DNA from: an uncultured Armatimonadetes bacterium
GTDB lineage: Bacteria > Armatimonadota > Fimbriimonadia > Fimbriimonadales > GBS-DC
Length of the DNA: 27,298 bases
Assembly (NCBI GenBank): GCA_937139515.1
Contig: CAKZQI010000030.1
Span: 1 to 27,298, forward strand
Direction: 5' to 3'
Shown: positions 5,443 to 23,839 of the stretch, in pieces
How positions within the stretch are numbered: the first letter of the stretch is position 1
Layout of the letters: every line of letters begins with the position of its first letter
The notes under the pieces: model-generated
Seen by the model: only the letters and a program-made list of their open reading frames with translations
Databases searched by the model: none
Told to the model about the DNA's origin: nothing
Program-made: the position numbers and the translations under genes

Positions 5443-7446
5443 TCAGAGGTATCGCTTCCACCAATCCAGATAGCGCTCTAAGCGGTCGCGGCGCAGGTCG
5501 GGGAGTCCACTGCGCGAGAGACCGTGGCTACTTTCCTGCGGATAGCGCACATACAGCACCTCGCGCCCTAACCGTTTGAGCGCAGAGAACAGCTGGTCTG
5601 CTTCACTGATGGGACAGCGCAGGTCGCCCTCGCTGTGGACAATCAGCAAGGGAGTGTGAATGCGCCCTGCCGAGGCGAGGGGTGAACACTCCCACAGTTT
5701 CTGAGGCTCATCCCAAAAGTTGCCCTTCCAATAACGGTTGGGGATTTGCGGGAAGTCGGAAGTCCCGCCCATACTCACAAGGTTCACGACACTGCGGTCG
5801 GTGATTGCCGCTTTGAAGCGGTCGGTGTGTCCCACAATCCAGTTGGTCATATACCCGCCGTAGCTCCCGCCTGCGACGCCCATCCGTTCGGGGTCTACAA
5901 ACGGCAGGCTCTGCAGATAATCGGCGACGCTCATCAGGTCTTTGAAGTCGCTGTTGCCCCAATCGCCCCGAATGGCGCGGGCGAACTCCTCGCCGTAGCC
6001 CATGCTCCCGCGCGGGTTGGTGTAGGCGACCACATAGCCCTCCGCTGCGTGCAGTTGGAACTCGTGGAAGAACACGCGCCCATACATCGCGTGCGGACCG
6101 CCGTGTATCATTAGGATGGTGGGGTAGCGTTTACTGGGGTCAAAGTCAGGCGGTTTCATCAGCCAGCCGTGGATTTTGACGCCATCATCGGCTTCCACCT
6201 CAAACTCTTCGGGCGCCACAATCTCCACCTCGTCCAACAGCGGCTGGTTGAGGGCAGTGAGCGGGCGCGTGTGGAGGGTGTTGCCCGTGCGCTCGGCGTA
6301 ATGCACCTCGTGCGGTTGGGTAGGCGAGCCAACGAGCATCGCCATTCGGTGCGCATCGCCTGCGATAGAGAGGTCTGCCACTTCAAAGTCGCCGTCCATC
6401 AGTTTCTCCAAGTGGGTGCCGTCGCGTCGCACACGATAAGGATAGACCCCGCCCCGCTCACTCACGAGGAAATAAATCATTTCGCTATCAGCGCTCCAGA
6501 GCAGGGGTGCGCCCCCACCGAACTCGCGCACATCGGTCAGCGTGCTGACCCCGACCGTGTTGTCCAAGTTCGGAATGAGGTCTACGGCGTCGCCCCCCTC
6601 CACCGACACGAGCCACACATGGTCGTTGCGCGGGTACGACTCTTCGGGGTCGGGGTTGCCGATGTAGGCAAGGTGCTTGCCATCGGGCGACCAGCGCAGG
6701 ACATATTTGGGTCCGTAGGGAGCGTCCACACGACGCGGTTCGCCCCCCTCGGCAGGCACAATCCAGATATCTACCTTGCCCGGCTCGTTATCGGGGTCGG
6801 GCTGACGGTTGCTGAGAAAGGCGATGCTCTTTCCGTCGGGCGACCAAGTGGGGCTGGACTCGCTGTAGGCGGAGTCCGTGGTGAGCTGGCGCATCTCGCC
6901 CGTCGCCACATCCACCACATAGAGGTGATAGCGTTGATTGAGGAACACACCGTCGCCGTCCAGCCGCCAGTAGGCGCGCTCAATCACGAGGGGTGGGTTG
7001 GATAGCCCTTTCTCTTGGCGTTCTTTGCGGGCGCGCTCGCGCCATTCAGGAGCAGTTTCGCGGTAAGTGAAGGCAATTTGGGTGCCATCGGGCGACCAAG
7101 CGAACTCGCCGATACTGCCCTCTTCCAAGCTCGTAAGCGGGCGTGCCTCACCCCCGTCCGCTGGAATGAGGTAGATTTGGCTCTTGGGCTTCTGACGGTT
7201 GCTAATAAAAGCAATCTGTTTGCCGTCGGGCGACCATCGGGGCTGGGAGTCGCTCCATTCGCCATAGGTAAAGGGTTGAGGCTGGTCTTCCCCAACCCGC
7301 ACACGCCACAAGTTAGAGAAATATTTATTCTTCTCGGTATCAATCCATTTGTACACGAACACCACCTGCGAGCCGTCGGGCGCGATTTGAGGACTGCCCA
7401 ACAAACGGATACGAAACAGGTCGTCAATAGTGATTTTGCGTTTCAT
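5443..7446 (-). CDS. S9-family serine peptidase (prolyl oligopeptidase/acylaminoacyl-peptidase-like) with N-terminal TolB-like beta-propeller
   Basis: Repeated WSPDGK/WSPDGT propeller motifs. C-terminal alpha/beta hydrolase with GGSYGGYMT nucleophile elbow (GxSxGG). Start chosen at MKRKITIDD (ATG 7444-7446), which has RBS GGAGGT. The longer ORF to 7518 is probably an over-extension. Confidence 0.8.
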   Translation of the reverse strand: MKRKITIDDLFRIRLLGSPQIAPDGSQVVFVYKWIDTEKNKYFSNLWRVRVGEDQPQPFTYGEWSDSQPRWSPDGKQIAFISNRQKPKSQIYLIPADGGEARPLTSLEEGSIGEFAWSPDGTQIAFTYRETAPEWRERARKERQEKGLSNPPLVIERAYWRLDGDGVFLNQRYHLYVVDVATGEMRQLTTDSAYSESSPTWSPDGKSIAFLSNRQPDPDNEPGKVDIWIVPAEGGEPRRVDAPYGPKYVLRWSPDGKHLAYIGNPDPEESYPRNDHVWLVSVEGGDAVDLIPNLDNTVGVSTLTDVREFGGGAPLLWSADSEMIYFLVSERGGVYPYRVRRDGTHLEKLMDGDFEVADLSIAGDAHRMAMLVGSPTQPHEVHYAERTGNTLHTRPLTALNQPLLDEVEIVAPEEFEVEADDGVKIHGWLMKPPDFDPSKRYPTILMIHGGPHAMYGRVFFHEFQLHAAEGYVVAYTNPRGSMGYGEEFARAIRGDWGNSDFKDLMSVADYLQSLPFVDPERMGVAGGSYGGYMTNWIVGHTDRFKAAITDRSVVNLVSMGGTSDFPQIPNRYWKGNFWDEPQKLWECSPLASAGRIHTPLLIVHSEGDLRCPISEADQLFSALKRLGREVLYVRYPQESSHGLSRSGLPDLRRDRLERYLDWWKRYL

Positions 7447-7556
7447 AGGAACCTCCAAGCCTCTGGTTCGCAGTGGTGGGAATTGTTCCTGCCTTCGGGC
7501 AGGCTGGGGGAAGGGCAAGACAGATTTGAAGGAACCCCTCCCCCAAGTGTTGGCTG

Positions 7557-9401
7557 TTAGTTGCTCTCTTCAGTGGGAGGCGCAACCTGTTCAGGTGCGG
7601 AGTTGGTCTGTGCGCTCATACGCACGGCGCCGATGCGTTGGGCAATCTGCATCAGTTGTTGTGCCATCTCGCCCAGTTTGCCGTTGCCATCGCCCATCGC
7701 TTGCAGTCCGCTGAGGGCGCCATCAATAGTCATCCCTAAGCCTAAGCCTTTGGCGTACTGTTCGGTCATGCGGGCGAGCGTTTCGGGGTCGCCGAAAATG
7801 TTCATAGTGCCTCGGCTCATGAACTCGCCAATCGAGCGCGCCAGCTCCACCTGCACATCGCGCTGGGCTTCCACGCGCAGTTTCTCGATTTCGAACTTGA
7901 GCGCCGCTTCGCTGTAGGTCTGGCGGTACTCCAGCGCTTGGCGTTCCACTTCCACGCGGGCGCGCTCCACCTCCACCTGTTCGCGAGCGATGTTGATGTC
8001 CACCATTTTCAGGGCGGTCTCACCGCGTGCGACCTGTTCGCGGGCTTTCGCTTCGGCTTCGGCGCGGGTAAGCGTCGCTTGCGCCTCCAGTTCTGCCGCT
8101 TGCTTGCGCGCTTCCGCCTGCTTCACCTCAGCGAACGCCTGCACTTGCACATCGGTCTCGCGCTTGATGCGCTCCTGCTCGATTTGTTGTTTGGCGGCGA
8201 TGAGTTTCGCTTGCGCCTCGCGTTCGGCGGCGGCAACTTGTTGCACGGTAATAATCTGCTGGTTGGCGCGCTCGCGCTCGGCTTGGGCTTCCAGCGCTTC
8301 GCGTTCGGCTTCGGCGCGTCGGCGTTCGGCTTCGGCGACCGCTATCTCCTTCTCGCGCTCGGTTAGCTCCACCGTCTTGGCGCGCTCGATGTCGGTCTTC
8401 TGGAGCTCTTGCTGGCGCAGGAGCAGGAGTTTGTCGCGCTCGATGGCGGCGGTGCGCACCGCTTGGTCTTGCTGGATTTCCGCCTCTTTTACTTGGCGGT
8501 CTTGCTCGATGCGGTAGGTCTCTGCCTCGCGCTTCTTCTCGGCTTGCACTTTGGCGACTTCGGACTGCTGAGCCGCCTCAGCTTCGGCACGCTGGCGCTC
8601 CAGCTCCAGAATCTCTTTCTGCGTCTGCACGCTCTTGAGCGTGATTTCGCGTTGTGCCTCCAGCTCGAGGCGGTTGCGCTCGACCAACGCCGACTGCGTA
8701 ATCTCGGTGATTTTGCGCTTACCCTGAGCGTCAAAGATGTTGTTGTCCGAGAGAAGCTCCTGAGAGGTCTGGTCTAAGCGGGAGATGGTGACCGATTCGA
8801 GGGTCAGTCCGTTTTGCTCGAGGTCGGCACGCACAAGTTGTTGTACCCCGCTGGCGAAGGCGTCGCGCTGGGCGTGGATTTCCACGAGGTCTTTGGTCGC
8901 CGCGACACTTCGGAGTGCCGAGACGAGCTTCTCAAACACCAACGCCGAGACCGATTGGGCGTTGACCGACTTGTCTCCCAGCGAGCGCGCCGCGTTGAGC
9001 ACCGACTCGGCGTCGGGTTGAACCTTGATGTAGAACTCCGCCTTCACATCCACACGCAGGTTATCGCGGGTAATCAGCGCGTCGGGTCCTTTGCGCTCCA
9101 CTTCCAGTTTCATCGTCTCCAGCGAGACGGGCACGCGCTCGTGCAGGAACGGCACATAAAGTCCACTGCTGTCAATCAGCACACGCCGTCCGCGCCATCC
9201 CGTAATCACATACGCCAAGTTCGCGGAGGGACGCAGGAACAGGTACTTCAGGGCGAGCATATAGCCCGAGATTAGGATGAGCGAACCGCCTACAATCCAG
9301 CTCACCAGCGAGTGGAAGTAGGTCCAGTTGCCCACGAATGCGCCCCCGATGAACCCTAACAGGGTTAGGAACAGCCCCAACAGCATCAGTAAGATGAGCA
9401 T
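7557..9401 (-). CDS. Flotillin-like SPFH/band-7 protein (YqiK/FloT family) with long E/A/R/Q-rich coiled coil
   Basis: N-terminal TM helices, an SPFH domain (YVITGWRGRRV...), then several hundred residues of EA-rich coiled coil typical of flotillins. It lies 5 nt downstream of the NfeD gene. Confidence 0.8.
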   Translation of the reverse strand: MLILLMLLGLFLTLLGFIGGAFVGNWTYFHSLVSWIVGGSLILISGYMLALKYLFLRPSANLAYVITGWRGRRVLIDSSGLYVPFLHERVPVSLETMKLEVERKGPDALITRDNLRVDVKAEFYIKVQPDAESVLNAARSLGDKSVNAQSVSALVFEKLVSALRSVAATKDLVEIHAQRDAFASGVQQLVRADLEQNGLTLESVTISRLDQTSQELLSDNNIFDAQGKRKITEITQSALVERNRLELEAQREITLKSVQTQKEILELERQRAEAEAAQQSEVAKVQAEKKREAETYRIEQDRQVKEAEIQQDQAVRTAAIERDKLLLLRQQELQKTDIERAKTVELTEREKEIAVAEAERRRAEAEREALEAQAERERANQQIITVQQVAAAEREAQAKLIAAKQQIEQERIKRETDVQVQAFAEVKQAEARKQAAELEAQATLTRAEAEAKAREQVARGETALKMVDINIAREQVEVERARVEVERQALEYRQTYSEAALKFEIEKLRVEAQRDVQVELARSIGEFMSRGTMNIFGDPETLARMTEQYAKGLGLGMTIDGALSGLQAMGDGNGKLGEMAQQLMQIAQRIGAVRMSAQTNSAPEQVAPPTEESN

Positions 9402-10901: not shown

Positions 10902-11384
10902 CTACCCCTCCCCAAACGGGCTACGAAACTGCTGGACGAAGCGGTCGTGCTCTGCCTCGGTTTGGAGGGGCAGTTGATGGTGCGCTGTGGCAGGAGCCGT
11001 GCAGTTGTAGGCTAACACTTGAGCGTTGATTTGCTGAATGACCTGTACCATCCCCTGCCAAGTCTCGGTTTGCCACACCAAGAACCGCTCCTCGCCCATC
11101 TCACAGATACGAGGATACTCCCGCTCAGCGATGAGCCAGAGCCTGTGGTAGTGGCTACGAATGCGTTCAATCTCGCGTGCGCGCTCCATCCAGTCGGGTA
11201 GCACGCCTGCACTCTTGAGCAGGCGGATAGCAGGGCGCATTTCGGGAGGCACAAACCACTCTTCGTCCATAGGGAGGGGTTTTCCGCGTCCGGGCAGGTT
11301 GTCAAACTTGCCTTCTTGCATCGCCTCTTCAATCTTGCGCTCGGCGATGATTTCTATCACACGCTGGATGTCAGGCTGGTGCAT
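10902..11384 (-). CDS. DUF1992 (DnaJC28-like) domain protein
   Basis: N-terminal IEEAMQEGKFDNLPGRGKPL motif characteristic of the DUF1992/DnaJ-homolog-C28 family. A -10 TATAAA ends about 9 nt before the ATG, so it is probably leaderless. Confidence 0.6.
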   Translation of the reverse strand: MHQPDIQRVIEIIAERKIEEAMQEGKFDNLPGRGKPLPMDEEWFVPPEMRPAIRLLKSAGVLPDWMERAREIERIRSHYHRLWLIAEREYPRICEMGEERFLVWQTETWQGMVQVIQQINAQVLAYNCTAPATAHHQLPLQTEAEHDRFVQQFRSPFGEG

Positions 11385-13876: not shown

Positions 13877-15526
13877 ATGCTGGCGGAACACCTGCCGATT
13901 TTGCATGTGCTTATCCCTCTGGTGGGGGCGATTGTTCTGCTGACGGGGGGTGTCCTGCGCCCCCTGAGAGAAGTCGCTTGGGGACTGACCATGCTGGTGG
14001 TGCTCGCCTCGGCAGTGAGCGCCTTCCAACTCATCCCTCGCGTGCTGTCGGAAGGTCGCATCAGCTATGCGTTGGGCAACTGGAAGCCCCCGTATGGGAT
14101 TGAGTATGCGGTTGACTCGCTCAGCCTGCTCCTGATTTTGCTCATCACCAGCCTTACTGTGATTATCACGCTCTACACGCGTCATAGCATTCAGCGCGAC
14201 ATCACGCCCAACCAACAACCCTATTTCTATTCTGCCTACCTCTTGTTCGTGGGTGGGCTTTTGGGGATGGTCACCACCGCCGATATTTTCAACCTCTATG
14301 TGTTTTTGGAGATTGCGTCGCTGTCGGGTTATGCGCTGATTGCCATCGGGCGTCGGCGTGAGGCACTTTTGGCAAGCTACAACTACCTAATGATTGGCAC
14401 GATTGCCTCTACACTGTTCCTGCTAGGAATAGGGTACCTTTACATGATTACGGGCACGCTGAACATGCAGGATTTGCAAGCGCGCCTGGAAGAACTTTAC
14501 GGCTCCCGCACCCTGCTGGTGGGGATGGCATTTATCACGCTTGGGCTGTCGGTCAAAATGGCGCTGTTCCCCCTGCACACATGGCTCCCCAACGCTTACA
14601 CCTACGCGCCCGACGCCATCACGGCGCTGATGGCATCGCTCACCACGAAGGTAGGGGTCTACACCGCCTTCCGTGTCTTTTTCGGGGTGCTGAAGCCTTC
14701 GTTCCTCTCCCAGGTCGTGCCGTTGGAGGAAATCTTTATGCTTCTGGGGGCGTTGGCGATTCTGGGTGGCTCGCTGATGGCTATCTTCCAGAACAATCTC
14801 AAGCGGATGCTGGCGTACTCCTCCGTGGCGCAGATTGGTTATATAGTGTTGGGGCTGGCGATGTTAAATGTTTCGGGGATGATGGGTGGGCTGATTCATA
14901 TCGTCAATCACGCCGTCGTGAAGGCGGGGCTGTTCCTTGCCGTAGGCAACATCATTTACCGTACAGGTTTGGAGGAGGTTGACGACTTGAACCAGATTGC
15001 TCAACAGATGCCCAAGACGATGTTGGCGTTCACTGTGTGTGCCTTAGCGCTGATAGGTGTCCCTCTCACGGCGGGTTTCGTGACGAAGTGGTACCTCGTG
15101 TTGGGCAGTATTGAGGCAGGGCGTTGGTTCCTGGTGCCCGTAATCGTTGTTGGTGCGTTGCTGGCGGCAGTCTATCTCTGGCGAATTATTGAGCGGGCGT
15201 ATTTTTGGTCGCGGAAGGGAGGAGCTCTCACCCCCCCAGCCCCCCTCTCCGCAAGCAGAGAGGGGGGGGAACTCGGTTCCCCCTCTCCGTTTACGGAGAG
15301 GGGGCAAGGGGGTGAGGTGAACCCAGACCCCCCCTCCCCAACCCTCCTCCCGAATTCTGAGCAAGAGAGCCAATCGCCTCCCGCGCCTAAAACCTCCGAA
15401 GTCCCCCTTAGCATGCTCATCCCGACGCTCGTGATGGCGGTTCTGAGCCTTGCGTTAGGTATCTTTGCAGTTTTGCCGTTGAACCTCGCCGAACGGATTG
15501 CCAAGTCGTTGTTAGGAGCCGAGTAG
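13877..15526 (+). CDS. mrpD: Mrp antiporter subunit D (NuoM/N family) carrying an in-frame palindromic-repeat insertion near the C-terminus
   Basis: HTWLPNAYTYAPDAITALMASLTTKVGVY proton-pump motif and a multi-TM structure. Residues approx. 450-495 (LTPPAPLSASREGGELGSPSPFTERGQGGEVNPDPPSPTLLP) are encoded by the 125-bp repeat. Confidence 0.8.
   Translation: MLAEHLPILHVLIPLVGAIVLLTGGVLRPLREVAWGLTMLVVLASAVSAFQLIPRVLSEGRISYALGNWKPPYGIEYAVDSLSLLLILLITSLTVIITLYTRHSIQRDITPNQQPYFYSAYLLFVGGLLGMVTTADIFNLYVFLEIASLSGYALIAIGRRREALLASYNYLMIGTIASTLFLLGIGYLYMITGTLNMQDLQARLEELYGSRTLLVGMAFITLGLSVKMALFPLHTWLPNAYTYAPDAITALMASLTTKVGVYTAFRVFFGVLKPSFLSQVVPLEEIFMLLGALAILGGSLMAIFQNNLKRMLAYSSVAQIGYIVLGLAMLNVSGMMGGLIHIVNHAVVKAGLFLAVGNIIYRTGLEEVDDLNQIAQQMPKTMLAFTVCALALIGVPLTAGFVTKWYLVLGSIEAGRWFLVPVIVVGALLAAVYLWRIIERAYFWSRKGGALTPPAPLSASREGGELGSPSPFTERGQGGEVNPDPPSPTLLPNSEQESQSPPAPKTSEVPLSMLIPTLVMAVLSLALGIFAVLPLNLAERIAKSLLGAE
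15226..15350. repeat. ~125-bp GC-rich repeat, copy A, containing two perfect hairpins, inside the mrpD CDS
   Basis: About 90% identical to 16971-17095. Hairpin 1 is CCCCCCTCTC-cgcaagca-GAGAGGGGGG (15240-15267). Hairpin 2 is CCCCCTCTCCG-ttta-CGGAGAGGGGG (15279-15304). Confidence 0.85.
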
Positions 15527-15530
15527 CACG

Positions 15531-17324
15531 ATGAACCCTGTCATAAACGCCTCTGAACCGATATGGGCTGTGGGCAGTGCTTTTCTCACTGCTCTCCTGA
15601 TAGCGCTTACGGGCAGGTGGCAGAATCTGCGCGACCTGTGGAGCCCGCTGGGCGCGCTGGCTCAGTTTGGGATTGTAGCGTCGCTCGTGCCCGCTGTGCT
15701 GTCAGGCGAGACCCGCACCTTCACCCTCACCACGCCCATGCCTGGGGTCGCCCTCTACTTCAAAGTGGACGAGTTGGGGCTATTCTTTGCCCTGATGGCG
15801 TCGTTCCTGTGGTTCATCGCCTCGCTCTATTCGGTAGGCTATATGCGCGCCCTCAAGGAGCACGCCCAGACCCGGTTTTTCGCCTTCTACGCCATTTCGT
15901 TGGGGTCTGCGGTGGGGATTGCGTTTGCAGGCAACCTGTTCACCTTGTTTGTGTTCTACGAGATGCTCACTTTGGCGACCTACCCGCTGGTCGTCCACAA
16001 ACAAGATGCCGAAGCACGGGCGAAGGCGCGCGTCTACATGACCTATCTGCTGGGAACCTCTATCGGCTTCCAGTTCACGGCGATCTTGGTTATTTACGGG
16101 ATTTCGGGCGAGCTGAACTTCACCAAAGGCGGGTTCCTGCAGGGTCAGGCACCCGATTGGCTCTTGCTCTCGGCGTTTCTGCTTTATATCGCTGGGATTG
16201 GCAAGTCGGCGATTATGCCTTTTCACAAGTGGCTTCCCTCAGCGATGGTAGCGCCTGCGCCTGTGAGTGCGCTCCTACACGCCGTGGCGGTCGTCAAGGC
16301 GGGTGTGTTCACCGTGCTGAGGGTGGTGGTCTATGTGTTCGGGGTGGACTGCTTGGTGAGCCTGCAGGTAGCGCAGATTTTGCCTTATGTTGCGGGCACG
16401 ACGATTGTGGTAGCCTCGCTGATTGCCCTGTTTCAGGACGACCTGAAGTTGCGACTTGCCTACTCCACGATTAGCCAGCTCTCGTATGTTGTGTTGGGGG
16501 CAGGGCTGTTGTCACCGTTGGGAGCGATGGGCGCGACGCTCCATATGGTGTTCCACGGCTTTGCGAAGATTACACTCTTCTTCACAGCAGGGCACATCTA
16601 CTGCGCCACCAAGAAGACCAAAATCAGCCAGATGCGCGGGATAGGCAAACAGATGCCCTTCACGATGATTGGGTTTACGATAGGTGCGTTGGGGATGATA
16701 GGGCTTCCTCCCGCCTCCAGTTTGTGGAGCAAGTGGTACATCGGTTTGGGCGCCCTTGAGACCCAACACTACTTCGCTCTAGGTGTGCTGGTGGTCAGCA
16801 CGATTTTGAATGCCCTGTACTTTTTGCCGATTGTCTACTCCGCTTTCTTTGAGGGTGGGGGGGGAGTAGAAGCCCTCACCCTCCCCAGCCCTCCCTCTCC
16901 CAACACTGTGGGAGAGGGAGAGAGCCAACTGCTCCCCTCTCCCGACGCTGCGGGAGAGGGGTCGGTAAACCTCACCCCCCCAGCCCCCCTCTCCGCAAGC
17001 AGAGAGGGGGGTGAAGCCCTATATTCCCCCTCTCCGTTTACGGAGAGGGGGCAAGGGGGTGAGGTGAACCCAGAAACCCCCTCCCCAACCCTACCCCTAA
17101 GCGCAGGGGGAGAGAGCCAACTGCTCCCCTCTTCCGAAGCTTCGGGAGAGGGGCAGGGGGTTAGGGCAACCGAGAAGCCTCCAACAAGTGAGGTCATAGA
17201 GTTCTCTACACCCTACCTAACCCTAATGACGCTGGCAATTTGCGCCACGGCGCTGGGCGTGCTGGTGCTGTTCGTTTACCCCCATCCCTTTCTGGAGTTG
17301 GCACGGAGGGTCGCTGGGCTATGA
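15531..17324 (+). CDS. NuoL/MrpA N-terminal-like antiporter subunit with multiple in-frame hairpin-repeat insertions
   Basis: AMVAPAPVSALLHAVAVVKAGVF resembles the NuoL/MrpA motif PTPVSALIHAATMV. It has about 14 TM helices. Residues approx. 445-545 are a low-complexity P/G/S/E linker encoded by five hairpin repeats. RBS AGGAG precedes the ATG at 15531. Confidence 0.75.
   Translation: MNPVINASEPIWAVGSAFLTALLIALTGRWQNLRDLWSPLGALAQFGIVASLVPAVLSGETRTFTLTTPMPGVALYFKVDELGLFFALMASFLWFIASLYSVGYMRALKEHAQTRFFAFYAISLGSAVGIAFAGNLFTLFVFYEMLTLATYPLVVHKQDAEARAKARVYMTYLLGTSIGFQFTAILVIYGISGELNFTKGGFLQGQAPDWLLLSAFLLYIAGIGKSAIMPFHKWLPSAMVAPAPVSALLHAVAVVKAGVFTVLRVVVYVFGVDCLVSLQVAQILPYVAGTTIVVASLIALFQDDLKLRLAYSTISQLSYVVLGAGLLSPLGAMGATLHMVFHGFAKITLFFTAGHIYCATKKTKISQMRGIGKQMPFTMIGFTIGALGMIGLPPASSLWSKWYIGLGALETQHYFALGVLVVSTILNALYFLPIVYSAFFEGGGGVEALTLPSPPSPNTVGEGESQLLPSPDAAGEGSVNLTPPAPLSASREGGEALYSPSPFTERGQGGEVNPETPSPTLPLSAGGESQLLPSSEASGEGQGVRATEKPPTSEVIEFSTPYLTLMTLAICATALGVLVLFVYPHPFLELARRVAGL
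16891..17153. repeat. Cluster of five palindromic hairpin repeats, including copy B of the 125-bp unit (16971-17095) flanked by a ~47-bp direct repeat (16915-16961 and 17107-17153)
   Basis: Hairpins: 16891-16920 (12-bp stem CTCCCTCTCCCA/TGGGAGAGGGAG), 16934-16961 (CCCCTCTCCCG/CGGGAGAGGGG), 16984-17011, 17026-17051 and 17126-17153 (one stem mismatch). All are in frame with the host CDS and contain no stop codon. Confidence 0.85.
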
Positions 17325-17509
17325 AAGGTCTGCGCTGGATTTTGTTGGGCGTTTGGCTCGTCGGTCTGCTGGCGGAGAGCCTGCTCACGAAACAGAAACT
17401 CCCTCTCCCGTACGCCCTGTTGGGGCTGATTGGGACTTTCGGTTTCGTGCTGGCTTACGAACTATTCGGCAAGCGTCTGTTAGCCCGCAAGGAGGACTAC
17501 TATGCCTGA
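17321..17509 (+). CDS. Small (62 aa) membrane protein translationally coupled between two antiporter subunit genes
   Basis: MKGLRWILLGVWLVGLLAES...LLGLIGTFGFVLAYELFG gives two predicted TM helices. Its ATG overlaps the upstream stop (ATGA) and its stop overlaps the downstream ATG by 8 nt. Confidence 0.5.
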   Translation: MKGLRWILLGVWLVGLLAESLLTKQKLPLPYALLGLIGTFGFVLAYELFGKRLLARKEDYYA

Positions 17510-19199
17510 GGCGCTCCACCCTGGTCTCCTGCTGATGGTGAGCGCACTCCTCATTCCCCTACTCCCAAATAGGCTTAGAGCGGGCTACCTCGTGTTGGTT
17601 CCGATTGCCGTGCTGGCGCTGCTGATGAACCTACCCGAAGGTCAGTGGCTTCGTGTACCGCTGTTGGATTACACCCTGACCCTGCTTCGTGTAGACCGCT
17701 TGAGTATGGGGTTCGCGCTGGCGTTCGTGATAGCGTTGGGCGCAGGGATGGGGTACGGGCTTCCCCAGCGCGATTGGCGCGAACATCTCCTCGCCTATCT
17801 CTACGCAGGAAGCACTTTAGGGGTCACCTTCGCAGGCGACTTGCTCACCCTGTTCGTGTTCTGGGAGATGATGGCGCTCTTTGCGACCTTGCTTATCTGG
17901 AGCGCACGACGAACCGATTCGTACCGAGCAGGGCTACGGTACCTAATCTACCACCTCATTGGGGGGCTGTTCCTGCTCTTCGGTATTCTGGGGCACTGGG
18001 CAGGGGGCGGTGGGCTGGAATTCAATGCGCTGGCGTTGGATAGCGTGTGGGCGTGGTGCATTTTGATAGCGTTCGTCATCAACGCGGGCGTTCCGCCGTT
18101 CCACACCTGGCTTCCCGACGCCTACCCGACCGCCTCAGTATCGGGAATTGTCTACCTGGGCGCGTTCACCACGAAGGCATCAGTCTATGTGTTGGCACGG
18201 GGTTTTGCGGGCGCTGAGGTCTTGATGTGGGCAGGGGCAGTGATGGCGCTTTACGGGGTGGTCTACGCCACTTTCCAAAACGATATGCGTCGCCTGCTCT
18301 CGTACCACATCGTGAGCCAGGTGGGATACATGGTGTGTGCGGTCGGTGTGGGGGGCGTTCAAGGGGTCAACGGCGCAACGGCACACGCATTCGCACATAT
18401 CATGTACAAGTCGCTCTTGTTGATGGGGGCAGGCGCTGTGCTATTTGCCACGGGCAAAGAGAAGCTCAGCGACCTCACAGGTGGCGAGCTATATCGTCGC
18501 TTGCCTCTGTCGCTTATGCTGTATCTCATCGGGGCGCTCTCTATAGCGGGTGTGCCCCTGTTCAACGGCTTCGTGAGCAAGGCGATTATCACCGAAGGAT
18601 TGGAGACGCTCGGTCAGAAGGCGGTCTATCTTATGCTCACGATTGCGTCGGTGGGCACCTTCTTGTCGGTTGCGCTCAAGTTGGCGTATTTCGCTTGGTT
18701 CGGCAAGCCCGGCCCAGAGCGGGTTGCGCAGTACCAAACGGTACAAGAGGTTCCACGAAGCATGCATCTTGGGATGGCGGTATTGGCAGTGGTATGCGTG
18801 GGAATGGGAGTAGCGCCCAGCCTGTTCAATTGGATTCTGCCGTACCCCGAAGCGCTCGCCGTGTACTCCACAGACAAGGTGCTGACCACTATGAACCTGT
18901 TCGTCGGCACGAGCGTGGGCTTTGCATGGCTGGTGGCGCGCCTACAACCAAAACCGAAAGAGATTTTGGATCTGGATTGGTTCTATCGGCGCGGGCTGTA
19001 CCCGTTCGTGGCGTGGAGCGTGCCGGCGGTCAGGCGTGCTTCTCGGCGTGTGGGGCGTCTCACTTTGGCGCGCGCCTTAGCACGCTCGCGCGACTGGCTG
19101 GAAGCGCGCTCGGCAGGCAGTTTCTCCGTGAGCGACGCAATTGTCTGGATTGCGCTGTTCCTGCTGGTCTATATCGGGGCGTATTTGCTTGTGAGGTGA
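17502..19199 (+). CDS. Second MrpD-like (NuoM/N family) antiporter subunit
   Basis: FHTWLPDAYPTASVSGIVYLGAFTTKASVY motif, multi-TM, and a conserved N-terminal NuoN-like region (LTLFVFWEMMAL). Confidence 0.8.
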   Translation: MPEALHPGLLLMVSALLIPLLPNRLRAGYLVLVPIAVLALLMNLPEGQWLRVPLLDYTLTLLRVDRLSMGFALAFVIALGAGMGYGLPQRDWREHLLAYLYAGSTLGVTFAGDLLTLFVFWEMMALFATLLIWSARRTDSYRAGLRYLIYHLIGGLFLLFGILGHWAGGGGLEFNALALDSVWAWCILIAFVINAGVPPFHTWLPDAYPTASVSGIVYLGAFTTKASVYVLARGFAGAEVLMWAGAVMALYGVVYATFQNDMRRLLSYHIVSQVGYMVCAVGVGGVQGVNGATAHAFAHIMYKSLLLMGAGAVLFATGKEKLSDLTGGELYRRLPLSLMLYLIGALSIAGVPLFNGFVSKAIITEGLETLGQKAVYLMLTIASVGTFLSVALKLAYFAWFGKPGPERVAQYQTVQEVPRSMHLGMAVLAVVCVGMGVAPSLFNWILPYPEALAVYSTDKVLTTMNLFVGTSVGFAWLVARLQPKPKEILDLDWFYRRGLYPFVAWSVPAVRRASRRVGRLTLARALARSRDWLEARSAGSFSVSDAIVWIALFLLVYIGAYLLVR

Positions 19200-19248: not shown

Positions 19249-19977
19249 ATGAAGCAATCAATCGGCGACTGGGCACTGATCCAACAGACCGTATCGTGGG
19301 GCATCACCCTTACCCCACACCAGCTGAGCCAGCTGGAACGCTATCTGGAACGGCTTTATGAGACCAACCAGCAGTTCAACCTGACACGGGTGCCCCCTGA
19401 ACAGACGGTAGGACGCCACATTATCGACTCGCTCTGCTTGCTGGCTGTCGCTGAGTTTGCGGAGGGCGCACGCTTGCTGGACATCGGTACGGGCGCTGGA
19501 CTGCCCGGCATTCCTCTCGCTATCGTTCGTCCTGACCTGCAGGTGACCTTGCTCGACTCCCACGCGAAATCGGTGCGCTTCTTGGAGCAGGTCTGCCAAG
19601 AGTTAGGACTGAAGGCAATCGCCATCCACGCCCGCGCTGAGGAGTGGGCGCATAACTCCGCCGTGCGAGAGGGGTTTGACAGTGTCGTTGCCCGTGCCGT
19701 CGCCAAAATGCCCGTACTGGCAGAACTGATGCTCCCCTTCTTGAAAGTTGGCGGAACTGCCCTTGCCCTCAAGAGTATCCACGAACACGATGAGGTCCTC
19801 AGCGCCCACAAAGCGGTTGAGCAGTTGGGGGGTCAACTCTGCTTGCACGAGGTTCCTATCCAGGCCGAGCAAGGTACGCTCACACGCCTCATCGCGCGCA
19901 TCACCAAAACACACCCCACCCCCAGTGCATATCCCCGCCGTTGGAGCCTCATCACGAAACATCCCCTACACGAATGA
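19249..19977 (+). CDS. rsmG: 16S rRNA (guanine527-N7)-methyltransferase RsmG (GidB)
   Basis: Conserved blocks: YETNQQFNLTRV, GRHIIDSL, LLDIGTGAGLPGIPLAIVRPDLQVTLLDSHAKSVRFL and VVARAVAKMPVLAELMLPFLKVGGTALALKS. Located near oriC. Confidence 0.9.
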   Translation: MKQSIGDWALIQQTVSWGITLTPHQLSQLERYLERLYETNQQFNLTRVPPEQTVGRHIIDSLCLLAVAEFAEGARLLDIGTGAGLPGIPLAIVRPDLQVTLLDSHAKSVRFLEQVCQELGLKAIAIHARAEEWAHNSAVREGFDSVVARAVAKMPVLAELMLPFLKVGGTALALKSIHEHDEVLSAHKAVEQLGGQLCLHEVPIQAEQGTLTRLIARITKTHPTPSAYPRRWSLITKHPLHE

Positions 19978-21104
19978 GAGTCGCCATCGATGCCCGCCTG
20001 CTCACAGGAGCCTACACCGGAGACCGCACCTACTGGCGGGGCTTGCTGAGCGCCCTGAGCAAAATACTCCGCCCCGACCAAGACCGTCTCCTGCTTTTCT
20101 CAACGCGCCCTATCCCAGCGGGGACACTGCCTGAAAGCCCTATTTTTGAGCCAGTAGTTGTGCCTGCCCTTAGTGAACGCCTCTGGAGCCTCTTCCGATT
20201 GCCCGCTCTGGCTCGGCAACATCGGTGCGACCTTGCTCACACACAATACACCGTTTCACCTTTCTTTAGAATGCCCGTACTTACGACAGTTCACGATATT
20301 TCCTTTTTGGTCTACCCTGAGTGGTTTCCGCTCAAGGATCGGATACTCTTGCGATGGACAATCCCCGCCTCCTGCCGAAGGGCTTGCAGGGTTCTGACCG
20401 TCTCTGAGTCGTCGCGAGAAGACATACTGCGATACCTGAACCTTCCCTCTGAAAAAGTGATTGCCACGCCGAACGGACTCCCCGAAGGTTTCCACCCGAT
20501 ACCGAAAGCGGAGGCGCAGGCTTGGGTCGCCAAGCACTACAATATTCGTCTACCTTTCGCCTTGGCGGTGGGGGTACTCCAGCCCCGCAAGAACCTGCTC
20601 TTAGCGATTGAGGCGGTACATCTCGCCCGCGAAAAGTGTCCCGACTTGCAGTTGGTGCTGACGGGCAAATCGGGCTGGGGTCTCAAGGCGATTCGCACGG
20701 CGCGCCAAGCTCTGGGCGATACCCACTGGCTCATCGAAACGGGCTATGTGCCCGATGAGCATTTGGTCTGGCTGTACAACGCCTGCGAGGTGTTTTTGTA
20801 TCCCTCCTTTTACGAGGGCTTCGGGCTTCCGCCTTTGGAGGCGATGGCGTGCGGGTGCGCTGTGATTGCCTCCAACGGGGGGGCACTGCCCGAAGTGGTG
20901 CAGTCGGGAGGCATCCTGCTTCCCCCCACCGAACCCGGCATGTGGATGGAAGCCATTCTCACCCTCCTGCAAAATCCGTCCTACCGAGAGAGGCTTCAGG
21001 CACAGGCGTTGGAGCAGGCGAAGCGGTTCCGCTGGGAGCAGACCGCCCAACGCACCCTGCAAGCTTATCAAGCTTGCCTCGAGTTATCCACAAATTGTGG
21101 ATAA
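19974..21104 (+). CDS. GT4-family glycosyltransferase (glycosyl transferase group 1)
   Basis: Starts MRVAIDARLL. Has the C-terminal GT4 motif FLYPSFYEGFGLPPLEAMACGCAVIASNGGALPEVV. Its ATG overlaps the rsmG stop (ATGA). Confidence 0.85.
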   Translation: MRVAIDARLLTGAYTGDRTYWRGLLSALSKILRPDQDRLLLFSTRPIPAGTLPESPIFEPVVVPALSERLWSLFRLPALARQHRCDLAHTQYTVSPFFRMPVLTTVHDISFLVYPEWFPLKDRILLRWTIPASCRRACRVLTVSESSREDILRYLNLPSEKVIATPNGLPEGFHPIPKAEAQAWVAKHYNIRLPFALAVGVLQPRKNLLLAIEAVHLAREKCPDLQLVLTGKSGWGLKAIRTARQALGDTHWLIETGYVPDEHLVWLYNACEVFLYPSFYEGFGLPPLEAMACGCAVIASNGGALPEVVQSGGILLPPTEPGMWMEAILTLLQNPSYRERLQAQALEQAKRFRWEQTAQRTLQAYQACLELSTNCG

Positions 21105-21382
21105 CTCCGTGTGGATAACCGATTCACGCCCCTCCGCGCCGAGTTATCCACAGGTTATCCACAAGTTATCCACAGAGTTATCCACAATTGCTTAGCTCGG
21201 CTAATTAACCAGCAAGTCAGCTCTAAAAAGGTGCATTTTGAACTCAAAATCGGTGCCAGAGCGCACCCATATTATACCGACCGACGGGTCGAAAAGCCGA
21301 GTTATCCACAATTCCACATCCCTAATAATTACAATGACTCTCTCTATAGGAAGGGAATCGAATTGTGGTTGGGTGTGGATAA
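21084..21382. other. Chromosomal replication origin (oriC) core: 8 perfect DnaA boxes TTATCCACA/TGTGGATAA plus AT-rich stretches
   Basis: Perfect 9-mers at 21084-21092 (+), 21097-21105 (-), 21110-21118 (-), 21144-21152, 21155-21163, 21166-21174, 21178-21186 (four tandem, 11-12 bp apart), 21302-21310 (+) and 21374-21382 (-). AT-rich segments lie at 21228-21250, 21268-21282 and 21318-21348. rsmG (gidB) is adjacent. Confidence 0.85.
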
Positions 21383-21532
21383 CTCGCTGAGACCCCCAGA
21401 GGGCCTACAAGCCCATAGAGAGCAAGAAAGCAGTAGAAGTCTCTGAGAGAAACTTATGCAGAATGTCCTCAACTGTAAAGCCAAGCAGTAACACCCAACA
21501 GCGAGTTTTAGTTCAATACGAAAAGCCCACTT

Positions 21533-21603
21533 GTCACCCTGAGCGTTAGCGAAGGGTCTCTACTTCGGGTGGCACCGAGATTCTTCGCTTCGCTCAGGAT
21601 GAC
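21533..21603. repeat. 71-bp palindromic element with 13-bp terminal inverted repeats (GTCACCCTGAGCG...CGCTCAGGATGAC), full copy
   Basis: Arms CCTGAGCGTTAGCGAAGGGTCTC and its near-reverse-complement GAGATTCTTCGCTTCGCTCAGG flank an 18-bp core. Related copies lie at 3574-3643 and 115-143. Confidence 0.6.
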
Positions 21604-23763: not shown

Positions 23764-23839
23764 GGTGCGGTACCCAAGTGGCTAAGGGGAGGGACTGCAA
23801 ATCCCTTATTCGTGGGTTCGATTCCCACCCGCACCTCCA
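23764..23839 (+). tRNA. tRNA-Cys (anticodon GCA), CCA encoded
   Basis: Folded by hand. 7-bp acceptor stem GGTGCGG/CCGCACC, 3-bp D-stem, anticodon stem AGGGA/TCCCT with loop CTGCAAA (anticodon GCA), T-arm GTGGG-TTCGATT-CCCAC, and discriminator U73 (the Cys identity element). Followed by CCA and a T-run. Confidence 0.9.

Follow-up and report, generated by a model that had tools for sequence, protein, structure and literature searches.

This analysis concerns a group of GC-rich palindromic repeats that lie in frame within two adjacent antiporter genes of an uncultured Armatimonadetes bacterium. The stretch studied, hereafter called the window, comprises the 27,298 nucleotides of contig CAKZQI010000030.1 (GenBank assembly GCA_937139515.1). 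The repeats belong to a dispersed DNA element of the BoxC/PIT/TM class (TM, triplex motif), which lies in frame in tolerant loops of many genes, turns over fast and forms arrays of variable copy number.

The antiporter genes and the palindromic unit

Three PF00361 subunit genes lie in the mrp operon of the window (13877-15526, 15531-17324 and 17502-19199), downstream of genes for MnhE, MrpF, MnhG, MbhD/E-like, MnhB and 4L-like subunits. The first two are the host genes of the repeats and belong to the Mrp MrpD/NuoL-M-N group, with their Proton_antipo_M domain and their location within an mrp operon. Gene 1 (13877-15526, plus strand) encodes an MrpD-like protein of 549 residues (PF00361, E 2e-66) and has orthologues in three related lineages, called here L125, L126 and L127. 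Gene 2 (15531-17324, plus strand) encodes an MrpD-like subunit of 597 residues (PF00361, E 8e-54), an assignment to which homologue alignment and a hydropathy scan also contribute. Both open reading frames (ORFs) run without a stop codon across the repeats into the conserved last transmembrane helix. An earlier reading made without database searches (the sequence-only reading) had placed the copies in the C-terminal region of two different antiporter genes, in frame just before the last helix, and this placement is upheld. In the hydropathy scan, the repeat-derived linker of gene 1 extends from the penultimate helix, which ends at about residue 435, to the last one (514-532), and gene 2 carries a repeat array of about 120 residues (about 441-560) ahead of its last helix (564-582). 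The closest solved chain, MbhH (6CFW_H), aligns with residues 28-432 of gene 2 only. NuoM and NuoN have a 14-helix topology with both termini periplasmic; by analogy with it, and from the Arg/Lys-rich sequence just before the insert, the loop that carries the inserts is probably cytoplasmic.

A hydrophobic ORF of 62 residues (17321-17509), with no Pfam match, overlaps both the gene 2 stop (ATGA) and the beginning of gene 3. All related contigs have it among their gene calls, and it may be an extra small Mrp subunit.

Two copies of about 125 bp, at 15226-15350 in gene 1 and 16971-17095 in gene 2, are identical at 115 of 128 aligned positions (89.8%), with one 3-nt indel in the spacer, and their local similarity extends over 15211-15401 and 16950-17139. 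Each of them contains two perfect hairpins, CCCCCCTCTC-N8-GAGAGGGGGG and CCCCCTCTCCG-TTTA-CGGAGAGGGGG. Gene 2 holds three more hairpins (16893-16918, 16935-16960 and 17126-17153) and a direct repeat, measured as 49 nt (16913-16961 and 17105-17153, 92% identical). Copies, hairpins and direct repeat had all been described in the sequence-only reading, as had the antisense ORFs at 15044-15373, 15172-15504 and 16835-17197, which are indeed present. The word CCCTCTCC occurs 12 times in the window, with 1.16 occurrences expected, and 11 of the 12 fall within the two loops; the paired pattern CCCTCTCC-N2-14-GGAGAGGG occurs four times, with none expected.

Three nucleotides after each hairpin, or before it on the other strand, there is a G-rich tail that is the mirror image of the purine arm of that hairpin. 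A generic scan of the whole window, written for a pyrimidine stem, a purine stem and a mirroring third block, found perfect motifs of 10 triads at four places only (15227-15267 on the minus strand, 15279-15317 on the plus, 16971-17011 on the minus and 17026-17064 on the plus) and imperfect ones at 17126-17166 (plus) and 17082-17112 (minus), with none elsewhere. Because the four perfect motifs are the four halves of the two units, each unit consists of two inverted triplex motifs with their tails pointing outward. The repeat of 125 bp is confirmed as such, but the true unit is shorter, with a core of about 93-99 bp (close to 95 bp) and terminal inverted repeats, and the remainder is an adjoining decayed module.

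In the gene 1 unit, the TM(-) half (15227-15267, no stem mismatches and no bad triads) reads CCCCCCTCTC-TGCTTGCG-GAGAGGGGGG-CTG-GGGGGGTGAG on the minus strand, that is, a C-stem of 10 nt, a loop of 8, a G-stem of 10, a loop of 3 and a mirror G-tail of 10; its translation is LTPPAPLSASREGG. The TM(+) half (15279-15317) reads CCCCCTCTCC-GTTTAC-GGAGAGGGGG-CAA-GGGGGTGAGG on the plus strand and is translated as PSPFTERGQGGE; this 39-mer served as the probe for related copies. It is followed on the plus strand by the decayed C-rich module (15318-15350, GTGAACCCAGACCCCCCCTCCCCAACCCT...), which in alignments is common to gene 2 and to an insert in Mfd (L129). In gene 2, the TM(-) half (16971-17011, minus strand) is 98% identical to the gene 1 copy over 45 nt, and the TM(+) half (17026-17064, plus strand) shares 50 identical nucleotides with it; the decayed C-rich module after them (17065-17112) includes the weak triplex-type match at 17082-17112. 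Upstream in the array lies an imperfect TM(-)-like module on the minus strand (16875-16919, repeat family D2), composed of CTCACCCTCCCCAG and the hairpin 16893-16918, with 64% identity to the reference copy and the translation LTLPSPPSPNTVGEG. The first copy of the 49-nt repeat (16913-16961, plus strand, repeat family D6) has a hairpin at about 16934-16961 that lacks a G-tail, and the second copy is joined to an imperfect TM(+) (together 17105-17166, plus strand; the motif at 17126-17166, with one stem mismatch and one bad triad, is translated as LLPSSEASGEGQGVRA). A tryptic peptide of the predicted insert product would be GQGGEVNPETPSPTLPLSAGGESQLLPSSEASGEGQGVR.

A non-coding remnant lies at the start of the contig (105-147, plus strand, repeat family D19), where a truncated TM tail (GGGGGTGAGGT, 105-117) is fused to a second hairpin-repeat family; the same junction recurs in L134-L137 and L140. 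This second family (GAGATTCTTCGCTTCGCTCAGGATGAC / GTCACCCTGAGCGTTAGCGAAGGGTCTC) is present in the window at 118-147 and 21533-21600 and also in L134-L140 and L138/L143. In the related loci its copies directly follow a TM unit or lie within a TM hairpin, and they too are in frame, with the conceptual translations EIPRLRLGMT and CHSERSEESQ.

The hairpin with its G-tail is an intrastrand-triplex motif of the BoxC/PIT/TM class, an identity absent from the sequence-only reading; the triplex itself is predicted from the sequence. The BoxC/PIT motif was reportedly treated by Bergler in 1992 and by Hoyne and Maher in 2000 and 2002. Its E. coli form, BoxC/PIT/TM_ECO, forms an intrastrand purine-motif triplex in vitro, and 3610 occurrences have been counted in 262 proteobacterial genomes, related G/C-rich motifs being abundant in cyanobacteria (Holder et al. 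2015, PMC4666352). According to the same paper, the E. coli K-12 motif is 'always located intergenically' and frequently forms inverted pairs; it goes together with local instability of the genome, and the authors never found mobility genes beside it (PMC4666352). The window units share with this motif the succession of C-rich stem, loop, G-rich stem, 3-nt loop and mirroring G-rich block, the core letters CCCTCTCC / GGAGAGGG / GGGGTGAGG, the inverted pairs, the local instability and the lack of a transposase nearby. However, the E. coli pairs are tails-in and the window unit is tails-out, most of the copies sampled here are genic and in frame (the full copies of the window all lie inside the two ORFs), and the published census is proteobacterial whereas this lineage belongs to the Armatimonadota. 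The published TM_ECO pattern (CCCTCNCCC N3-6 GGGNGAGGG N3 GGGNGAGGG) has no match on either strand of the window, since the G/C runs are shifted (5C-TCTCC, 10-nt stems, a first loop of 6-8 nt), and the units are therefore filed as a variant of the class and not as TM_ECO proper.

The class was also sought in 185,579 reference genomes with the pattern CCCCTCTC-N3-12-GAGAGGGG-N1-8-GGGGTGAG, for which about 0.3 matches would be expected by chance (a rough estimate). At least 120 stretches were found and, because the matches listed span many phyla (Chloroflexota, Planctomycetota, Cyanobacteria, Bacteroidota, Xanthomonadales, Armatimonadota and others), the TM motif class is pan-bacterial. Among these matches 44% lie in stop-to-stop ORFs of at least 200 residues, against 79% for random positions, a depletion that is a rough indicator only since long spurious ORFs are common in GC-rich DNA.

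Dispersal, reading frame and turnover of the unit

The exact right-half 39-mer was found in 22 related metagenome contigs from the same set of samples, probably from Fimbriimonadales, with 24 copies in all. About 17 of the 24 copies are inside stop-free ORFs of 250-900 residues, and six are outside long ORFs, several of them truncated. In every copy within a long ORF the coding strand is the element strand and one frame is used, reading PSPFTERGQGGEV; this is usually preceded by NLTPPxPLSASREGG, which indicates that the whole unit is present, with the linker peptide NLTPPxPLSASREGG...SPSPFTERGQGGEV. The unit was found in at least 14 unrelated genes. The hosts include FolC, Mfd, homoserine dehydrogenase, RapZ, PurK, TrpF, a glycosyltransferase, a GlcE-like oxidase, a Zn-dehydrogenase and EpsI, and in FolC, RapZ, PurK and TrpF the match to the family model is split into two stretches. 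A HMMER search of 1.84 billion representative proteins with a 42-residue peptide gave 10 matches, so few because the query is short; they supply extra hosts and are not a census (BirA, more variants of TrpF, Mfd and PurK, and a replication-type protein of 1157 residues with several copies). A word-indexed protein search with a 46-residue repeat peptide returned no candidates.

The consensus of the aligned copies is (A)ACCTCACCCCCC-NNN-CCCCCCTCTCC-GCAAGCA-GAGAGGGGGG, a spacer, the 39-mer and T(T), with terminal inverted repeats AACCTCACCCCC / GGGGGTGAGGTT that continue into arms some 40 nt long. The length of a complete unit is 92, 95, 98 or 107 nt and that of its spacer 11, 14, 17 or 26 nt (11 + 3k), all equal modulo 3. 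Variation is located in the 3-nt triplex loop, the hairpin loops and the spacer, and not in third codon positions. The frame bias is not imposed by stop codons, the left arm being open in all three frames and the right arm in two of three. Since all copies within long ORFs have kept the frame, the strand and the length class, the elements appear to be translated as part of the host protein and not removed. Programmed bypass or splicing of the inserts is unlikely, because a single open frame and modulo-3 lengths would be needless if the inserts were removed. A protein-level repeat domain spread by selection is rejected in view of the variation in loops and spacer, the copies outside long ORFs and the conservation of the arms, far above that of the hosts.

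The sequence-only reading had proposed that orthologues be aligned as a check on insertion. Where gene 2 has about 120 residues, most homologues at 46-59% identity have some 15-25, and orthologues at 74-83% identity show the same loops with different repeats or none. The related lineages that possess the whole operon are L125, L126 and L127; the phylum call and the taxonomic assignment of the lineage rest on the names of 90%-identity cluster mates of one neighbouring gene, which are Fimbriimonadales (phylum Armatimonadota). The gene 1 loop contains the same double unit in L126, the left half with a different TM in place of the right half in L127, and a segment of similar length without any palindrome in L125. 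The gene 2 loop contains two units of a different TM subfamily (PLSHSVGEGLGVRA) in L126 and decayed remnants only in L125; in L127, whose flanking gene has 93% identity to that of L126, it contains three to four tandem 45-bp copies. All differences in loop length between lineages are multiples of three.

The arms of the element are much more conserved than the genes around them. Between the window and L126, gene 1 has 76% nucleotide identity and the element arms are identical at 41 of 42 and 39 of 39 positions (about 99%), and PurK orthologues with substantially different protein sequences carry an identical 39-mer. Such conservation would reflect a recent spread, the homogenisation of copies or a strong constraint on the DNA as such. 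It does not agree with a linker that just drifted along with its gene. The two window units also have in common an adjoining module that the L126 copy lacks, and for this reason the second window copy is most simply seen as a recent local transfer between genes 1.7 kb apart.

Heptanucleotide tandem repeats, (GGGCAGT)n, are found next to TM units in L126 (3440-3475), L127 (9715-9760) and L125 (9715-9740), and also in the PurK and GlcE inserts of L133 and L144; in all these loops they are translated as GSGQWAVGS. They resemble the heptamers of the cyanobacterial short tandemly repeated repetitive (STRR) sequences. The insert-bearing loops look like sinks for several classes of repeats.

DUF559 endonucleases and the possible origin of the unit

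In MetRS (L010), in LeuRS at two different sites (L021 and L116) and in a Type ISP restriction enzyme (L104), a TM(-), an extra domain of about 110 residues and a TM(+) follow one another, all in frame. The extra domain is DUF559 (PF04480, E about 1e-34), a Vsr-like PD-(D/E)XK nuclease family. A hidden Markov model built from the embedded domains was used in a six-frame search of all loci in the study. DUF559 was detected in nine of the 120 pan-phylum TM loci among the matches listed, each time at most 46 nt from a TM (per-locus null probability 0.13), and eight of the nine have TM motifs on both sides. The flanks carry the same ends as the window unit; for instance, L113 reads ACCTCACCCCCAACCCCTCTCC...GGAGAGGGG - ATG...DUF559...stop - CCCTCTCC...GGAGAGGGGCTAGGGGTGAGGTT. 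The ORF of the LeuRS inserts runs across both termini in the frame that the window units have (LTPGPSPEERGG... / ...SPSPVERGLGGEV), the terminal frame of the embedded DUF559 ORFs being LTPxPSP... / ...SPSPxERGxGGEV, and the DNA read at L010, L021, L104 and L116 contains TM-encoded linkers on either side of the embedded domain. A protein search with one DUF559 insert returned mostly free-standing proteins of 120-160 residues, many starting with LTPxPSPKERG, and a few fusions to chorismate synthase, IspF, WecB or LeuRS domains (P0141, P0144, P0174 and P0247). The genes with an in-frame DUF559 domain, these fusions included, come from various phyla. Three DUF559 genes from this search whose called products have no TM-derived residues are flanked by TM motifs too. 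No paper linking DUF559 or ycjD to BoxC/TM was found in the literature.

At the stop codon of the E. coli DUF559 gene ycjD, presumably the only such gene of strain K-12, there is a degenerate hairpin, and the distance from ycjD to TM_ECO #9, on its downstream side, is 168 nt. The DNA between this hairpin and TM_ECO #9 includes a partly duplicated ycjD 3' end (L150; NC_000913, 1351040-1351410), which looks like a rearrangement scar at the end of the element.

The repeats are probably copies of a dispersed palindromic element without a gene of its own, made of two inverted BoxC/PIT/TM-type motifs and residing in frame in tolerant loops. Because the arms outlast host divergence and the loops vary, the process is understood as an invasion of coding sequence like that of the Rickettsia palindromic elements (RPEs), carried out by a different, GC-rich element. 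Copies would arrive at the DNA level, and their persistence in genes would need both a tolerant surface loop and the sole frame that gives a harmless Pro/Ser/Gly/Glu linker; in the window, the tolerant loop would be the one before the last transmembrane helix of the two MrpD-like subunits. A loop with one copy could then gain more, and the array would change through tandem duplication or slippage together with gene conversion, the near-identical units of the adjacent genes representing one such recent transfer.

More tentatively, and with the chances slightly against it, the window units may be miniature nuclease-less derivatives of a larger element whose termini flank a DUF559 ORF and whose spread relies on a nuclease break. 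Such a selfish parent would have the same two termini around the DUF559 ORF, read through both in the same frame. Its spread would depend on a break made by a DUF559-type nuclease, or on break repair, with copying from another element. The single frame would be inherited from a parent ORF with linker-coding termini, and selection would purge other frames and orientations. With a similar reserve it can be proposed that BoxC/PIT/TM motifs in general are the termini (or homing sites) of a pan-bacterial selfish DUF559 family that resides in frame in host genes without splicing, that these termini double as linker code, and that the window units are a miniature form of it which has colonised many housekeeping genes.

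Several observations weigh against this set of proposals. No target-site duplication was found at the junctions of 14 complete copies, and the central spacer varies among copies where the arms do not, which is hard to reconcile with a single master copy. Neither a DUF559 gene nor a transposase was found in the approximately 244 kb of Fimbriimonadales-like contigs of this lineage, so that no autonomous partner is established for these copies. The arrangement around DUF559 is tails-out in six loci and tails-in in four, and a homing site would fit equally well. In the related loci sampled, 65 of 97 such hairpins are deep inside ORFs of at least 200 residues, a coding share that comes from contigs retrieved via the repeat and is not a genome-wide estimate. 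The translation of the inserts is argued from conservation of frame, and the cytoplasmic position of the Mrp loop from the NuoM/NuoN topology and the flanking Arg and Lys residues.

The equal fit of a homing site leads to a different explanation, which is unlikely: the TM motifs would be recognition or homing sites of free-standing DUF559 genes, and the window units empty targets that spread or persist otherwise, for instance by structure-induced repair errors. DUF559 lies exactly in the centre of the TM(-)/TM(+) pair in the six loci and between TM(+) and TM(-) in the four, as expected from insertion into a palindromic target; moreover, L152 has the full composite repeat on both sides of its DUF559 gene, and in the empty unit it is the centre that varies. 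However, this reading leaves unexplained how lineages in which no DUF559 gene was observed came to have near-identical units of about 95 bp in 14 or more unrelated genes, and the DUF559 ORF reads the termini as linkers, which suggests that these travel with it. A role for the host is considerably less probable. In that case the hairpins would be kept for a function of the RNA (pausing before the last helix, or stability of the operon mRNA) or of the protein (a flexible Mrp linker). The predicted mRNA folds are very stable, the first unit (15222-15324, 103 nt) folding as one long hairpin of -71 kcal/mol (z -5.3) and the gene 2 array (308 nt) reaching -190 kcal/mol (z -10.3), and repeat-laden loops occupy the same position in both genes and in all four related lineages. 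Yet the unit also occurs in soluble enzymes unrelated to Mrp, close relatives vary in the content and length of the loop, one orthologue has a long loop without any palindrome, and the segment is absent from most homologues. Rfam gave nothing at its gathering thresholds, only generic hairpin matches (miRNA-precursor) far below them.

Recombination between the paralogous genes, which the sequence-only reading had suggested, survives as a secondary process. The window units have 50 identical nucleotides and the adjoining module missing in L126, their genes are 1.7 kb apart, and local transfer is the likely origin of the second window copy. As a sole explanation, duplication or gene conversion between the adjacent paralogues with no dispersed element is refuted by the presence of the unit in 22 other loci, in 14 or more host genes and in non-coding DNA as well, and its probability is very low. 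Lower still is that of an assembly artefact or chimera of a GC-rich repeat, in favour of which only the general difficulty of assembling repeats can be invoked. The sequence-only reading would have been undone by such an artefact, but the repeat regions are the same base for base in an NCBI contig of a metagenome-assembled genome (MAG), a JGI metagenome contig and an ENA assembly, and a second JGI metagenome contig, the fourth assembly, contains the second repeat region. The source samples are JGI 3300010288 and 3300025104. This agreement excludes the artefact, and both ORFs are intact into the conserved final helix. An exact look-up of the gene 2 protein was empty; a variant with one residue changed is on record, and it led to the independent contigs.

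The palindromic-element explanation can be compared with described systems. RPEs (Ogata et al. 2000, 2002; summarised in PMC10969869) are palindromes of about 100-150 bp found in frame in many unrelated housekeeping genes, with a peptide conserved in one frame, copies outside genes too and no transposase, and the window element has all these traits. The analogy with them had been drawn in the sequence-only reading, and it is strengthened by the short loops of distant homologues, the dispersal in at least 14 genes on one strand and in one frame, the copies outside long ORFs and the arms at about 99% identity in hosts at 76%. RPEs, by contrast, are AT-rich and belong to a host of a different phylum and lifestyle, and the window units have a triplex-type mirror tail, multi-copy arrays and a candidate nuclease-bearing relative. 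Homology to RPE-1 to RPE-10 is implausible because the host belongs to the Armatimonadota and the element is GC-rich; it is RPE-like in its action only.

[quoted passage not shown] The window unit resembles them in its inverted repeats, its size and the lack of a mobility gene of its own, but it has no target-site duplication, its genic copies keep to one strand and one frame, and the related larger element encodes a Vsr-like nuclease and not a transposase. As to an autonomous relative, the same termini surround DUF559 in nine pan-phylum and three independently sampled loci, although DUF559 is not proven to be the mobiliser and none is found in the contigs of this lineage. The DUF559-bearing relatives recall inteins and homing-endonuclease genes in having a nuclease ORF in frame in essential genes (LeuRS, MetRS); they differ in that the DUF559 inserts contain no splicing domain and the insert apparently stays in place, joined by terminus-encoded linkers. 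Finally, repetitive extragenic palindromic (REP) sequences and the bacterial interspersed mosaic elements (BIMEs) that they form, with their REP-associated tyrosine transposases (RAYTs; PMC3733652), are likewise small, GC-rich, clustered and widespread palindromes. REPs, however, are extragenic and have GTAG/CGTC tags, whereas the window copies are intragenic and no such end tags are seen in the aligned copies; no RAYT gene was noticed among the gene calls of the related contigs, which were not the object of a dedicated search.

Other features of the window and significance

Just upstream of the mrp operon (10902-11384 region; L121, 418-1510) there are a gene of the Uma2 family (putative endonuclease) and a DJC28-domain gene. 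Exact DnaA-box 9-mers (TTATCCACA) occur ten times in the window, with 0.12 expected, and nine of them are clustered at 21080-21400, in an intergenic gap of low GC content that lies downstream of rsmG/gidB (19249-19977) at a distance of about 1.1 kb; very probably this region is the origin of chromosome replication. There is one tRNA-Cys (GCA) gene, at 23764-23839. On the minus strand, the ORF at 5443-7518 has internal DNA repeats (6590-7254) that recur about every 150 nt, like those of a beta-propeller-type repeat protein, and the neighbouring ORF of 614 residues at 7557-9401 shows a strong compositional skew (AT skew -0.55 at 8001-8500) and has repeat periods of 81-360 nt. The repeats in both look like protein-level repeats unrelated to the palindromic element.

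The motif itself was already known, and so were in-frame palindromic invaders, from Rickettsia and from a few MITEs in the literature. What appears to be new is an element of the BoxC/TM class as a frequent single-frame resident of housekeeping genes, its occurrence in Armatimonadota and a motif class that systematically adjoins DUF559 genes. For annotation, such repeats yield spurious antisense ORFs, low-complexity 'domains' and inflated protein lengths in MAGs. The repeat, strictly intergenic according to its description in E. coli, can be compatible with coding elsewhere. BoxC/PIT/TM motifs have been known for about 30 years without a known origin or means of movement, and the repeated adjacency of TM and DUF559 offers a testable candidate for the way in which they originate and spread and suggests what a large family of uncharacterised nucleases may do. 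After Rickettsia, this is the second clear case of selfish palindromic DNA inside many housekeeping genes, carried, as the conserved frame indicates, into their proteins, and it suggests that the evolution of protein loops through palindrome insertion is more general than Rickettsia.

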